Source of the DNA: an uncultured Bacteroidales bacterium
Lineage (GTDB): Bacteria; Bacteroidota; Bacteroidia; Bacteroidales; UBA932
Length of the DNA: 64,000 bases
Reading direction: 5' to 3'
Assembly: GCA_946415475.1 (NCBI GenBank)
Contig: CAMKSQ010000004.1
Location: 898-64,897 of the forward strand
Positions 22,698 to 57,145 of this stretch are shown here, piece after piece; position 1 is the stretch's first letter; every line of letters starts with the position of its first letter. The position numbers were made by a program, and so were the translations under genes. Under the pieces are notes generated by a model. It was not told where the DNA came from, searched no databases, and was given only the letters and a program-made list of their open reading frames with translations.

Positions 22698-23634
22698 AAT
22701 AAGGATTGCTTAACGTGGTTTGGATGAGCGGATCCGTGCCGATATAAGGCAGGATGCGCGTGCCGAAGAGGTATCGACCCGTATTGTAAGCGTCGTAATA
22801 GGCGTCATCCGGCACAAAGCTGCCGATTTTTACCAGGCCCAGCGAGTGGATGAAGCGGCCGTTGCCCAGGTAGAAGCCCACATGGCTGATGCCGGCGGTG
22901 CCGTCCTCCTTCCATCGACCAAAGAAAACCAGGTCTGCCGGCTTAAGCTCGTTCATGTCCGTAATGCGCTGGCCCACTTTGCTTTGCGGACCGGCGTCGC
23001 GGGGAAGGATGAGGTCGTGCATGAACAGGACCGTGCGTACGAAACCGCTGCAGTCCATACCTTTGGGCGACATGCCGGCCCAGAGGTAGGGGAAACCCAG
23101 CATGCTTTTGGCCGTTGCCAGGATGGCTTCGGGACTATTGTCGATGTCCTTGCGCCAGTCGTCTTCCTCCTTTGCCAGTTTGCGGGAAAGGAAGCCGGTG
23201 CGCCCGTCCGGGAAGGCCACCTTGAAGTAATTGCCGCGCTTGCCCAGGTAGCGGAGCATGTCTCCGGCCACCACGTCCGACACCGTGGCGGAGCTCTTGG
23301 AAGCCTCCTGGTGCACAATGCCGGTGAGGGCCGTCACCACCACCTTCGGGGCAACGTTCCATGCGTGGTAGGTGTCATAATCCATCACGGTGATGGCGTC
23401 CTTGTGCACCCAGCCGGTATAGGTGTCCGGCGTCTGCACCTGGGGCCAGTTGTAGCTGCCGCCCGTCTGCAGAATGTGCACGGGCGTGCCCAGCAGGGCC
23501 TGCGACACCATTTCGGCGCTGTACGTAGGCGTATCGCGCAGGTTGCACACGGAAATGTTCACGACGCCCCATTCCTGGGCGAAAGCGGAAAGGCCGGCAA
23601 GCTGCGCCGCCGCCAAAAGGATCATTTTTTTCAT
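22687..23634 (-). CDS. NlpC/P60 gamma-D-glutamyl-L-diamino-acid endopeptidase with SH3b domains (YkfC-like)
   Basis: 315-aa ORF with a signal peptide. It has N-terminal SH3b-like repeats, the catalytic Cys in GMDCSGFV and His in ISHVGFYLGNGRFIHS. Confidence 0.85.
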   Translation of the reverse strand: MKKMILLAAAQLAGLSAFAQEWGVVNISVCNLRDTPTYSAEMVSQALLGTPVHILQTGGSYNWPQVQTPDTYTGWVHKDAITVMDYDTYHAWNVAPKVVVTALTGIVHQEASKSSATVSDVVAGDMLRYLGKRGNYFKVAFPDGRTGFLSRKLAKEEDDWRKDIDNSPEAILATAKSMLGFPYLWAGMSPKGMDCSGFVRTVLFMHDLILPRDAGPQSKVGQRITDMNELKPADLVFFGRWKEDGTAGISHVGFYLGNGRFIHSLGLVKIGSFVPDDAYYDAYNTGRYLFGTRILPYIGTDPLIQTTLSNPYYAE

Positions 23635-24557
23635 TCTGCTTGTAGTAATGCCAAGGCCTCCTCGACGGAAAGTGCCTTGTCGATGGTAAATTCTCCGCTC
23701 CGGGAACGGATGAGCCCGCTCAGGTGCGCGCCGGAGTTCAGCGCCTCTCCCAGGTCGCGGGCAAAGGCCCGGATGTACGTCCCCTTAGAACACGCAATGC
23801 GGATGGTGGCCTCCGGTAATCCTAACCCTGAAGTATCTGCTACGTGAATTCTTGACGATGCAGAATTGTTTGAGGATGGCATAGGGGTATCTGAACCGTC
23901 GCTTCGCGACCCCTCCCATTCGCAGCGTGCTTCGCACGGCTGTGGGCCCCTCCCTCTTACACGGCCGAGGGTGGCCATGGGTTCAGATACCCCTATGCCA
24001 TCCTCTGTAAAATCGAGCAACTCTAACTCGCTGATGTTGATGCGGTTGCGGTGGAGGGTTTCCAGGGCGGCAGCGTCGATGGCCTCCGTGTTGCCGGCCC
24101 GGTAGAGTTTCCGGGCAAGTTCGTAGGCTCGGACTCCATCCACGCTCTTGGCGCTGAACAGCGGAGCCACCTGCTCCTGCTCGCCCAGGAAGGCGGGAAG
24201 GGCGGTGCGCACGGCATCGGCACTTATATGCTCAAACGGGAACTGGCGGTCCACCTCCTTCTCCAGGTCGTACGACGGCGTGGTGGCGCCAAAACGGATG
24301 CGCGCGATATACTCTTTGTCGTGGTCCTGCAGCTCCTGCGCCCGTTTACAGGCATTGCCGATGCACACCAGCAGTACCCCCGTCGCCAGGGGATCCAGCG
24401 TGCCTGCATGCCCCACCTTCAAGTTCTTCTTCCCGAAGTGCTTGATGGCGGCATACTTGAGTTTGCGGATGACGTCGGCAGAAGTCCAGCGGTAAGGTTT
24501 GTCTACCGCCAGCACAATGCCTTCCGGATAATCGGCAATGTCGCGGCTGAAAATCAT
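23631..24557 (-). CDS. truB: tRNA pseudouridine(55) synthase carrying an in-frame repeat insertion
   Basis: VDKPYRWTSADV, GHAGTLDPLATGVLLV and CSKGTYIRAFARDLG motifs. At 308 aa it is longer than usual because of the insert at 23872-24005. Confidence 0.93.
   Translation of the reverse strand: MIFSRDIADYPEGIVLAVDKPYRWTSADVIRKLKYAAIKHFGKKNLKVGHAGTLDPLATGVLLVCIGNACKRAQELQDHDKEYIARIRFGATTPSYDLEKEVDRQFPFEHISADAVRTALPAFLGEQEQVAPLFSAKSVDGVRAYELARKLYRAGNTEAIDAAALETLHRNRINISELELLDFTEDGIGVSEPMATLGRVRGRGPQPCEARCEWEGSRSDGSDTPMPSSNNSASSRIHVADTSGLGLPEATIRIACSKGTYIRAFARDLGEALNSGAHLSGLIRSRSGEFTIDKALSVEEALALLQAE
23872..24005 (-). repeat. hairpin-forming MITE/RPE-like element inside truB
   Basis: A perfect 26-bp inverted repeat (23872-23897 / 23980-24005) encloses a 40-nt core (23940-23979) that is 39/40 identical to the reverse complement of 56372-56411. 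Confidence 0.85.
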
Positions 24558-37888: not shown

Positions 37889-38070
37889 AGCGCCGCCGAT
37901 GGCTCCGGCTGGCCCGATGCCATGTACTTTCTGAATTCCTGTATTGTCATAGCTCTTTTTTCAGTGTGCTATTGTGTCTTTAGAAGAAGGGCATCCAGCG
38001 CGTCCGATACCGGATGTCGCTCCTATGATGATGGCAGTTTGCATGCTCAAATATACGGTTTTTCTGTGAA

Positions 38071-38120
38071 ATGACATGAACCCCAAAAGTTGGACAAAAA
38101 ACTTTTGGGGTTCATGTCAT
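38071..38120. repeat. perfect 21-bp inverted repeat (hairpin)
   Basis: ATGACATGAACCCCAAAAGTT 38071-38091 and AACTTTTGGGGTTCATGTCAT 38100-38120 with an 8-nt loop. It lies 36 nt downstream of the stop of the 38156-39262 gene. Confidence 0.8.
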
Positions 38121-54353: not shown

Positions 54354-54357
54354 AGCT

Positions 54358-54385
54358 GTCATTCTGAGCGAAGCGAAGAATCTCC
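54358..54385 (-). repeat. GTCAT-prefixed mini-hairpin (GCGAAGC core) in the gpmI-lpxD spacer
   Basis: GTC-ATTCT-GA-GC-gaa-GC-GA-AGAAT-CTCC. It shares GAGCGAAGCGA with the truB/tilS elements. Confidence 0.7.
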
Positions 54386-55958: not shown

Positions 55959-55966
55959 CAAAGTTA
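55959..55966 (-). promoter_or_regulatory. -7 box (TAACTTTG) of gpmI overlapping the tilS stop
   Basis: Sense TAACTTTG lies ~53 nt upstream of ATG 55905. Confidence 0.45.
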
Positions 55967-57145
55967 GTCATTTTTTGCACAAATACGAAGAATCCGGCGG
56001 GTGGTGGATGTCACCCGGACGCTATGGTCGATGCAGTAGGGGATAACGGCCAGCACGTGGTGCGGTTCCACTGCGCTTTTAAGCAGCGGAATGAACGGTT
56101 TTTCGTCGGCCGGAATATGATGGTCCGTAAACCAGTCCTGCAGTTTCTTGCGTCCCGGTGCCCCCAGCGGCTTGATCCAGTCGCCGCTTTTCCAGGCTCC
56201 CTCCGTATATTCTCCCGCCTTGTCCGCATCCAGGATAAGCACCCCCTCCGGCTGCTTCACCGCCTCCGTTCCATCCCATTCCTCTATAGCGATAGAATAC
56301 TCCTTTGAGAAACCAGGGTCTTTTGTCGTAAAGCCTGTTGAGACATCTGGAAGGGCATGTGCCTCTGACCCCATGGCCACCCTCGGCCGTGTTAGAGGGA
56401 GGGGCCCACAGTTAGTGCCCGTCGCAGAAGGGCACGACGCATTGGGAGGGACGAGGAGCGAAGCGACGAAGGGGTCAGAGGTACATGACCCTTCCAGTGT
56501 CTCTATTTCCTCTGCAAATCGGGCCATGTCCCGGTTCAGGGTTTGGATGAACGAGGGGTTGATGGTGGCAAAAATGGGGAAGACCTGATTGCGGATTTTG
56601 TTGCGTTTGTAGGCGCTCTGGGCGTTGGTGCTGTCCTCCCGCCAGGAAAGGCCATGCTCGCGGGCAAAGGCCTCGATTTCCTCGCGCGTCATTTCCAGCA
56701 ATGGCCGCCGCAGGGGAATGTCCCCAAACTCAGGATCCGGGATAAAGCCTTCCGCCTTCATGCCCGTGATGCCTTTTAGTCCGGTACCACGTAACAAATT
56801 CAGGATCAGCGTCTCCGCGTTGTCGTTGGCGTTGTGCGCCACCGCCACGGCCTCATAACCGTACTCCCGGCACAGTTCCCCAAACCAATGGTAACGCAGT
56901 CGCCGCGCCGCCATCTCAATGGAAATACCCTGTGTCGATGCAAACGCTTCCGTGTCGAAGCGCTTCACGTGGCAGGGGATGTTGTAGCGGGCCGCCTGCT
57001 CACGGACAAAGGCTTCGTCCGCGTCGCTTTCCGGGCCTCTCAGGCCAAAGTTGCAGTGTGCAACGGCAAAAGGCCCGCCTTCCTCGCGGACCTTTTCCAT
57101 AAGGCACATAGAATCAATGCCTCCGCTGACTGCAACCAGGAGCAT
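55964..57145 (-). CDS. tilS: tRNA(Ile)-lysidine synthetase carrying an in-frame repeat insertion
   Basis: PP-loop VAVSGGIDSMCL is right at the N-terminus. The C-terminal TilS domain reads GRKKLQDWFTDHHIP...PLL. TAATG overlap with the upstream gene. Confidence 0.9.
   Translation of the reverse strand: MLLVAVSGGIDSMCLMEKVREEGGPFAVAHCNFGLRGPESDADEAFVREQAARYNIPCHVKRFDTEAFASTQGISIEMAARRLRYHWFGELCREYGYEAVAVAHNANDNAETLILNLLRGTGLKGITGMKAEGFIPDPEFGDIPLRRPLLEMTREEIEAFAREHGLSWREDSTNAQSAYKRNKIRNQVFPIFATINPSFIQTLNRDMARFAEEIETLEGSCTSDPFVASLLVPPNASCPSATGTNCGPLPLTRPRVAMGSEAHALPDVSTGFTTKDPGFSKEYSIAIEEWDGTEAVKQPEGVLILDADKAGEYTEGAWKSGDWIKPLGAPGRKKLQDWFTDHHIPADEKPFIPLLKSAVEPHHVLAVIPYCIDHSVRVTSTTRRILRICAKND
56340..56503 (+). 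repeat. hairpin-forming MITE/RPE-like element inside tilS
   Basis: ~33-bp imperfect inverted arms (56340-56372 / 56471-56503) enclose the 40-nt core 56372-56411, a GTGCCC/GGGCAC hairpin (56415-56435) and GGAGCGAAGCGAC. Confidence 0.85.

Follow-up and report, generated by a model that had tools for sequence, protein, structure and literature searches.

The DNA analysed here, called the window below, is a stretch of 64,000 nucleotides from an uncultured Bacteroidales bacterium (contig CAMKSQ010000004.1), and the subject is an in-frame block with long inverted arms inside its tilS gene. The block belongs to a dispersed foldback family whose copies tolerate being part of coding sequence, are under a strand-specific pairing constraint, invert in place and decay by deletion. 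An inverted repeat search gave two arms of 33 nt each, 98 nt apart, and when the right arm is reverse-complemented and aligned, with gaps, to the left one, one G.T pair and two 1-nt bulges appear; the two bulges are also found in the predicted fold. The block is translated as ...ETLEGSCTSDPFVASLLVPP...GPLPLTRPRVAMGSEAHALPDVS... and corresponds to about residues 220-274 of TilS, between the PP-loop domain (residues 2-187) and the TilS_C domain (residues 319-357) identified with Pfam.

A 41-nt core of the tilS copy (56371-56411) recurs once on the minus strand of the window (23940-23980), differing at 1 of 41 positions against a chance expectation of zero. This match is part of a second copy, located in truB, whose arms (24005-23980 and 23897-23872) form a perfect stem of 26 bp and whose hairpin H3 reads GTCGCGAAGCGAC (23910-23898). 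Its translation, ...EDGIGVSEPMATLGRVRGRGPQPCEARCEWEGSRSDGSDTPMPSS..., falls into a catalytic-domain loop that immediately precedes the CSKGTYIR motif, and the TruB_N Pfam match in the window protein ends at position 111 of the 149 in the profile. Both host open reading frames (ORFs) are on the minus strand and are read through, while the two copies have opposite orientations. Folding of both copies, on either strand, is far more stable than that of shuffled sequences (z = -7.6 to -9.4).

An initial annotation, made from the sequence of the window alone, had already described the tilS block, and our analysis agrees with it in all details checked, namely the coordinates, the 33-nt arms and their one G-T pair and two bulges, the core common to both copies, the opposite orientation and the in-frame read-through. 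Two of the parts that it named can be refined. The "central hairpin" GTGCCC-N9-GGGCAC is present at 56415-56435, within what is now recognised as the variable hairpin H2 of the family, and is followed by a GGGAGGG...GGAGCGAAGCGAC segment. The 40-nt "core" holds a 7-bp hairpin, Ha, whose loop is predicted to pair with a GAGGG further downstream (Table 1). The arm motif TCTGA(A/C)C is indeed common to both copies, as had been stated, but it is no more than the inner arm end, where conservation is loose. In the subfamily of the tilS copy, ACGAGGAGCGAAGCGACGAA takes the place of H3 and the GCGAAGC mini-hairpin alone is kept; the same is seen in the tilS orthologues L018, L112 and L063.

Table 1. 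Features of the two copies and their host genes in the window
Feature	Position	Strand	Basis
Host gene tilS, element antisense	55964..57145	-	ORF, Pfam, allele alignment
tilS copy, 5' arm of outer stem P1, locus-specific sequence	56340..56372	+	Inverted repeat, fold, X-drop arm definition
tilS copy, hairpin Ha: stem C-ATGGCC / GGCCGT-G, invariant loop ACCCTC (56379-56384)	56372..56391	+	Stem covariation
tilS copy, GAGGG, putative pseudoknot partner of loop CCCTC (56380-56384)	56395..56399	+	Compensated variants
tilS copy, variable hairpin H2, CCC...GGG base	56405..56446	+	Sequence, fold; variation across copies
tilS copy, GGGAGGGA junction and subfamily-2 H3 (ACGAGGAGCGAAGCGACGAA), GCGAAGC mini-hairpin at 56458-56464	56444..56470	+	Sequence
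tilS copy, 3' arm of outer stem P1	56471..56503	+	Inverted repeat, fold, X-drop arm definition
Host gene truB, element sense	23631..24557	-	ORF, Pfam, alleles
truB copy, 134 nt, canonical interior	23872..24005	-	Core match, fold, arms; covariance-model score 105 bits

A repeat family of uncultured Bacteroidales

The repeat family to which the tilS block belongs appears not to have been described before. An exact 20-mer from the left part of the core (ATGGCCACCCTCGGCCGTGT), searched in contigs of one genome per species, matches at least 113 stretches, and all but two, which are chance matches, are from metagenome-assembled genomes of uncultured Bacteroidales from rumen, horse and reindeer gut. 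The 80 rows listed for this search represent at least 30 species-level genomes, with several copies in each genome. In copies obtained with this 20-mer the left core is necessarily fixed, a bias that is absent from a search of metagenome contigs with an independent right-side 22-mer (GGGAGGGGTCGCGAAGCGACGG); it matches at least 120 stretches, and the exact left-core 20-mer is present in only 12 of 110 copies obtained in this way. A covariance model of the family finds the two known copies alone in the 64-kb window and few additional ones in 702 kb of fetched loci. The element measures about 110-175 bp, its hosts are uncultured rumen and gut Bacteroidales, and TilS and TruB relatives are labelled Candidatus Cryptobacteroides or Bacteroidales. 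The covariance-model scans suggest roughly tens of copies per genome. The possibility, left open by the initial annotation, of only two copies without structural covariation is thereby removed, as the stems also covary (see below).

At gathering thresholds Rfam returned only tRNAs from the window, and permissive scans of three copies returned only noise. No family match was found in viral contigs, phage records or plasmid records, and a phage or plasmid origin was therefore rejected. The searchable literature on Bacteroidales contained nothing comparable to this family.

At least eight copies in one genome, RGIG4875, have common AT-rich arms and differing left flanks, and several of them share a larger composite repeat on the right. 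Same arms next to different left flanks indicate, for this one genome, that the arms travel with the unit. As a separate observation, this burst of copies (L029, L040, L046, L059, L062, L074, L092 and L100), with its conserved arms AAAAAATAACCTGTTCCATTTTTATCGCC, is mostly intergenic, and its members often form head-to-head pairs or are joined to a second repeat, CCCTCTGAAAyTCCAGCAGTGCCCTGTCAGAC. The two copies at L074 flank a gene for a Fic-domain protein, which was considered and rejected as a partner enzyme.

Conserved interior and covarying stems

An outer stem, P1, encloses the interior of each intact copy; it is 21-33 bp long, near-perfect within the copy and different between loci. The P1 arms of unrelated loci do share a loose consensus (GGAGGAGGGTGTATGTTCCGAAACC-like), on which ground inverted duplication of host target sequence was rejected as their origin. 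Read on the CCATGGCC... strand, hereafter the core strand, the interior consists of Ha (a 7-bp stem with the invariant loop ACCCTC), a linker of 3-4 nt, GAGGGAGGGG, H2, GGGAGGGG, H3, GG and the return arm. H2 keeps a CCC/GGG base with 4 to more than 60 nt in between, variable in both length and sequence across copies, and H3 is typically GTCGC-GAA-GCGAC.

The initial annotation noted from two copies that the arms and the central stem diverge and still remain complementary, and this is borne out by the family as a whole. Among 99 distinct copies, 18/18 pairs of P1 change on both sides while 95.4% of the cells stay paired, values that none of 500 shuffles reached. The corresponding figures are 4/5 pairs and 95.8% for H3 and 3/4 pairs and 96.8% for the base of H2. 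For Ha and the pairing of its loop with GAGGG, which were counted in the unbiased right-side sample, 5/7 pairs (86.2% of cells paired) and 2/5 pairs (99.7%, with two compensated pair types) change on both sides. Variants of the Ha stem include (C)ATGGCC/GGCCGT(G), (T)GTGGCC/GGCCAC(A), (T)CTGGCC/GGCCGG(A), GTAGCC/GGCT.. and GTGCCC/GGGCGC, as well as one that is shorter by one base pair on both sides. A U.G/G.U pair is conserved in Ha (31/48 aligned cells).

Changes in the Ha loop are matched downstream, ACCCCC occurring with GGGGG (L123, L164/L222) and ACCCTT with AAGGG (L129/L223), and the loop ATCCTC (L229) yields a U.G pair with its partner. The Ha stem and the pairing of its loop with GAGGG cannot both nest, and the two together therefore imply a pseudoknot, which is supported by about three independent events but not proven. 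A simple nested hairpin, CCCTC/GAGGG closed by GGCC/GGCC, had been considered and was replaced by Ha plus the pseudoknot after the unbiased sample was obtained.

Two further observations concern the interior. Four G3 tracts (GGG-A-GGG...H2...GGG-A-GGG; 56395-56404 and 56444-56450 in the window) are kept in every variant seen, also in those that lose the fourth G of a tract. A G-quadruplex with the hairpin as its central loop might be formed, at most as an alternative state competing with the pseudoknot, because the pseudoknot, which has covariation behind it, already engages the first G-tract (GAGGG, in the tilS copy at 56395-56399). Furthermore, some subfamilies carry an extra structured domain of ~50-60 nt between Ha and the GGGAGGGG motif, replacing the TAAGA linker (L116:~1000-1060, L144, L148, L225 and L235), and a second type of inserted sequence occurs in L123, L154, L173 and L206. 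Either a nested element or a fold that expands by modules could account for the extra domain.

Copies inside protein-coding genes

Of 95 intact copies, 65 (68%) lie inside long read-through ORFs, 23 with the core strand in sense and 42 in antisense. These fall into 27 host-gene groups, and many other copies are intergenic. In 17 host groups the read-through frame carries real Pfam domains, identifying the hosts as a YggS-type pyridoxal-phosphate protein, TilS, DapF, a THUMP-like methyltransferase, GT2, a YgiQ-type radical SAM protein, TruA, a MiaB/RimO-type enzyme, TruB, RibF, MetRS, a TrmB-type methyltransferase, an ABC ATPase, a RapZ-like protein, a SpoU methylase, a nucleotidyl transferase and a DHH phosphoesterase. 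Within this sample about 8 of the 17 act on tRNA or rRNA (TilS, TruA, TruB, the MiaB/RimO-type, TrmB-type, SpoU and THUMP-like enzymes and MetRS). Loci with such hosts are L008, L010, L026, L035, L044, L053, L105 and L112, in addition to the window. This share may reflect that multi-domain housekeeping enzymes have tolerant linkers, rather than targeting.

Across these hosts the core is translated in all six frames, which extends to the whole family the initial observation that either orientation can be read through. When frames are anchored to the core, five are free of stops in most copies, intergenic ones included; the sixth is closed by GTG-TAA-GAG and open in a TTA variant, which is the one carried by the tilS copy. 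Over the whole element, intragenic copies have 3.4 open frames and intergenic copies 2.7, compared with about 2.0 in dinucleotide shuffles. As the excess is also found between genes, coding compatibility is a property of the family and not the result of survivorship alone.

Conservation is at the level of nucleotides and not of peptides, as illustrated by the tilS orthologues L051 and L080, which read WAPPSYTAEGGHG where the window reads GPLPLTRPRVAMG. This bears on the question of whether the block is ordinary ancestral TilS sequence, resembling truB by chance or as convergent low-complexity sequence. In favour of such an origin, the TilS linker is variable in length among relatives (340-408 aa). 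However, at least 17 unrelated proteins contain this nucleotide block, translated in six frames; it is also present between genes, and its 41-nt match in truB has a chance expectation of zero, so that we regard an ancestral origin as refuted. In some alleles the linker directly upstream of the element contains a tandem duplication of a unit of ~16 residues (GREGENQGLILKNxQNQ; L018:6416-6707, P0046, P0047, P0065, P0070 and P0090), and the linker is thus unstable in more than one way.

Inversion, drift and decay of resident copies

A comparison of tilS alleles, as proposed in the initial annotation, revealed that close relatives carry the element as in the window, with its interior reversed, as partial remnants, or apparently not at all. 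Alleles L112 and L116 have identical arms of 28 bp and nearly identical flanks (89/91 and 60/64 positions), while their interiors are exact reverse complements, apart from an extra domain of 51 nt in L116. Same arms and flanks around a reversed interior indicate inversion in place and not re-insertion. Likewise, the TruB alleles P0133 and P0142 have the arm peptides EDGIGVSEP and GSDTPMPSS in common and read the interior in opposite senses. Orientation differs in 7/13 multi-member host groups and in 33/91 orthologous pairs.

These observations could also be explained by a programmed intragenic inverton, a cassette that offers the host alternative in-frame peptides (MATLGRVRGRGP... or ...GPLPLTRPRVAMG) for beneficial phase variation. 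Both orientations are found at the same site, with identical arms and in near-identical strains, in tilS and truB, orientation also differs within host groups and orthologous pairs as given above, both orientations are in frame, and recoding intragenic invertons are known from Bacteroides (PMC10028968). A sequence-specific invertase, however, could not recognise arms that are specific to each locus, and exchange between perfect repeats of 21-33 bp at a distance of ~60-140 bp requires no dedicated enzyme. Moreover, the inserts lie in linkers and loops of TilS, TruB, TruA and YggS, where the alternative peptides have no obvious functional effect, and many copies are intergenic. We therefore consider host-beneficial switching a quite improbable explanation.

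The apparently empty tilS alleles are deletions. In L115 the outer 12 nt of the left arm remain, joined at a (C/T)ATGCC microhomology, and in L117 and L118 both outer arm ends remain, joined at ACCTC. L115 was considered as a true empty allele with an outer left arm, but is better read as a microhomology deletion nested among filled alleles. The TruB alleles P0141, P0147 and P0234 are deletion derivatives as well, and half-copy remnants are found at L047, L066, L070 and L113. The half-copies were also considered as the ends of an autonomous element, which was ruled out as they are remnants of internal deletions.

Arms drift at about the rate of the host flanks and stay paired, whereas the interior is nearly constant. 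In orthologous pairs with a host-flank identity of 0.66, the inner arms are 0.66 identical and the interior outside the search seed 0.88; at a host-flank identity of 0.79 these values are 0.78 and 0.94. L004 and L006 are an example, differing by compensated substitutions plus a compensated indel.

The folding strand

Mismatches in the arms, counted on the model alignment, comprise 75 G.T, 25 A.C and 53 others. For distinct arms only, sorted by orientation against Pfam-validated host genes, there are 14 G.T and 1 A.C in copies sense to the host gene, 28 and 2 in antisense copies, and 16 and 6 in intergenic copies. It is thus always the core strand that tolerates wobble, also in those hosts whose mRNA has the complementary sequence, which rules out the host mRNA as the folding species. 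RNase III-type processing, an idea raised in the initial annotation, is for the same reason left without support.

The bias also bears on the possibility that arm "covariation" is mechanical, one arm being copied onto the other by inversion with heteroduplex repair or by template switching in a quasipalindrome. Template switching turns imperfect inverted repeats into perfect ones (PMC7202029), inversion is demonstrated at tilS and truB, the arms diverge about as fast as the host flanks, which would be expected if their sequence were unconstrained, and the compensated indel between L004 and L006 is easier to obtain by templated copying than by two independent events. Strand-symmetric copying, on the other hand, predicts equal numbers of G.T and A.C, whereas all three classes favour the core strand, and arm-to-arm copying cannot account for the covariation of the elements located between the arms (Ha, H2, H3 and the pseudoknot). 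A purely mechanical origin is hence possible but doubtful, although arm copying during inversion or template switching probably contributes to the complementarity. The initial suggestion that the fold is under selection, as DNA cruciform or RNA hairpin, accordingly stands as far as covariation goes, with the qualifications that host mRNA is not what folds and that part of the arm complementarity may be mechanical.

If not the host mRNA, an RNA made from the CCAUGGCC... strand might be the constrained molecule, as a non-coding RNA, a ribozyme-like module or a retro-mobilised RNA. A pseudoknot and a three-helix junction with conserved purine-rich linkers, stems that all covary, the conserved U.G/G.U pair in Ha, the tolerance on one strand of G.U far above A.C, and H2 loops of which some are G(CUUG)C or GNRA-like would all agree with selection on an RNA fold. 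Against this, about two thirds of the copies are antisense to local transcription (16 sense and 35 antisense in genes, 5 and 9 in unidirectional intergenic contexts), so that sense transcription is not preferred. Nothing AT-rich and promoter-like is present in the conserved part, and arms that vary between loci cannot provide a conserved promoter. The lack of an Rfam match even at permissive thresholds is another point against an RNA, and flips of the interior would turn an RNA product on and off at random.

The loops speak for DNA as well. In 51 of 77 copies the H3 loop is GNA closed by C-G (38 GAA, 5 GGA, 5 GCA and 3 GTA), and the most common H2 loop is also C(GAA)G. According to a review of DNA mini-hairpins, GNA is the only one of the 64 triloops that forms the structure in d(GCNNNGC), with a stability order of A>G>C>T (PMC13037366). 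At the level of sequence, the H3 loops match the d(GCGNAGC) motif and its stability order, and this signature of DNA mini-hairpins dominates the loops of the family. Taken together, the wobble strand, the orientation of copies and the GNA loops favour, though not decisively, that the core strand folds as single-stranded DNA, and we consider a structured RNA fairly unlikely.

A non-autonomous selfish repeat as the favoured explanation

The explanation that we favour, and hold to be probably correct, is that a non-autonomous, selfish DNA repeat is dispersed in the genomes of Candidatus Cryptobacteroides and relatives, and that the tilS block is one of its resident copies. The whole unit, arms included, has spread to many genes and intergenic sites, and survives in genes by having an interior that is open in five to six frames and by landing in linkers and loops. 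Resident copies persist for long periods, their arms drifting with the flanking DNA while remaining complementary, the interior flips in place via exchange between the arms, and copies decay by microhomology deletion. The active form would be the folded core strand, most likely as single-stranded DNA, and by analogy with the HUH/Y1-type transposition of IS200/IS605 and REPINs, a trans-acting enzyme would recognise it. Complementarity of the arms would be kept by a constraint on the core-strand hairpin, helped by conversion during inversion or template switching. The insertion sequence IS608 follows the same substrate principle of folded single-stranded DNA. In the IS200/IS605 and REPIN/RAYT systems, hairpins and pairing within single-stranded DNA define the substrate (PMC3116915).

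Several observations weigh against a selfish repeat of this kind. At old orthologous sites the interior has hardly changed, which one would not usually see in a purely selfish repeat, and a function at the level of the host could be the reason. Among the tilS and truB alleles no unoccupied site was found, only deletion derivatives and remnants, and insertion and target were not observed; no direct repeats (target-site duplications) are visible at the arm ends as defined here, in a comparison in which no true empty site fixes the boundaries. The 86 ORFs beside intergenic copies, which are neighbours only, include no recurrent transposase or recombinase and no Y1/HUH family, and neither a long autonomous unit flanked by half-copies nor distant matching halves were found. 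Other points concern the folding molecule in particular. Interior-only folding energies do not separate sense from antisense with either RNA or DNA parameters, and features such as a pseudoknot, a multi-helix junction and the conserved U.G/G.U pair of Ha would be more usual in a functional RNA than in DNA. Furthermore, if most genes run in the direction of replication, the sense/antisense ratio is at odds with the simple expectation that the lagging-strand template holds the active strand.

A bolder version holds that the element is a strand-specific DNA module defined by structure, with a conserved pseudoknotted fold and a freely evolving stem, which a dedicated enzyme both spreads and flips. 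This appears unlikely to us. If true, dozens of housekeeping enzymes would carry a mobile, invertible, recoding cassette, a portable intragenic inverton, and the host may use the cassette, or the element may persist as a vertically inherited replicator like REPIN-RAYT.

Comparison with known systems

The closest known parallel in behaviour, though at most an analogue, is found in the Rickettsia palindromic elements (RPE). These are palindromic repeats of ~100-150 bp, present in tens of copies and inserted in frame in unrelated housekeeping genes, to whose products they add a peptide (Ogata et al. 2000 as summarised in PMC10969869). They are without a known transposase and of unknown function, and their copies have been described as encoding a conserved peptide (PMC10969869). 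The likeness lies in a dispersed palindromic repeat of comparable size that frequently inserts in frame and leaves genes open. However, RPEs are found in Alphaproteobacteria and not in Bacteroidota, and the two families are likened by descriptions of RPEs, not by sequences. By the description of a conserved peptide RPEs would have a preferred frame, whereas all six are used here, and the present family differs further in its locus-specific arms, conserved asymmetric pseudoknotted interior, strand wobble bias and in-place inversion. We know of no report of such an arm/interior design, wobble bias or in-place inversion for RPEs.

In proposed mechanism, REPINs are the closest. They are non-autonomous hairpin repeats with vertical persistence, compensatory hairpin changes and no obvious target-site duplication, and have been proposed to move as single-stranded DNA via an HUH/Y1 enzyme encoded elsewhere (PMC3116915). 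Their design is the opposite one: in REPINs it is the ends that are conserved, as two inverted REP 16-mers, and the middle that varies, whereas the elements described here have variable ends and a conserved non-palindromic middle. Moreover, REPINs are extragenic while about two thirds of our copies are intragenic, and no RAYT-like gene was found beside any copy of the family.

Intragenic invertons of Bacteroides, from the same order, also have intragenic inverted repeats around a segment that occurs in both orientations, both in frame; they are single-locus systems, presumed to be driven by an invertase, with heterogeneity within clonal cultures (PMC10028968). Here, in contrast, the family is dispersed, with a conserved interior and arms that differ between loci, and inversion was seen between strains only. 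Miniature inverted-repeat transposable elements such as Correia, ERIC, BOX and RUP (PMC10969869), and palindrome-associated elements derived from IS200/IS605, are likewise small, non-autonomous and strongly structured, with inverted termini, and sometimes lie within ORFs. However, the termini of miniature inverted-repeat elements are conserved between copies, match a parent insertion sequence and are flanked by target-site duplications, whereas here the termini vary by locus and neither a duplication nor a parent insertion sequence was found. The attC sites of integrons are recombination substrates set by the fold of one DNA strand, with little conservation of stem sequence. They resemble our family in the idea of a one-strand folded-DNA substrate alone, as they have no conserved 60-nt interior and occur in cassette arrays with an adjacent integrase, none of which was seen here.

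To our knowledge, selfish repeats inside protein-coding genes have essentially one textbook example, the RPEs of Rickettsia. The present family would add an independent second case, much larger than the first and from another phylum, in abundant uncultured rumen and gut bacteria, and it provides handles beyond those of RPEs (hundreds of copies, covarying stems, a putative pseudoknot, strand bias, in-place inversion and a decay series). With these it becomes possible to study the movement of such elements, the reasons for their tolerance and the level, DNA or RNA, at which they exist. There are also consequences for annotation: Pfam domain matches are split, protein length variation within species is inflated, flipping creates alternative peptide inserts, and metagenomic pipelines may call the element an intragenic inverton or an assembly breakpoint.

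Other repeats in the window

A second short repeat, GTCATTCTGAGCGAAGCGAAGAATC, is located at 54355-54385 (+), just beyond the 3' end of a phosphoglycerate mutase gene, and consists of an ATTCT/AGAAT stem around a GCGAAGC mini-hairpin. Peptides such as SPVILSNSSPVILS in some TruB, TilS and MiaB-like alleles resemble in-frame translations of a related unit, the sites being P0136, P0140, P0193 and P0196 (TruB), P0116 (TilS), the host protein of L053, and L084:~400-540. This suggests that the unit may represent a second coding-compatible repeat family built on the same mini-hairpin.

Finally, a perfect 20-bp palindrome, ATGACATGAACCCCAAAAGT-N10-ACTTTTGGGGTTCATGTCAT, is located between genes at 38070-38120. 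The covariance model matched its bare stem only. The palindrome has no relation to the interior of the family and may serve as a terminator or operator.

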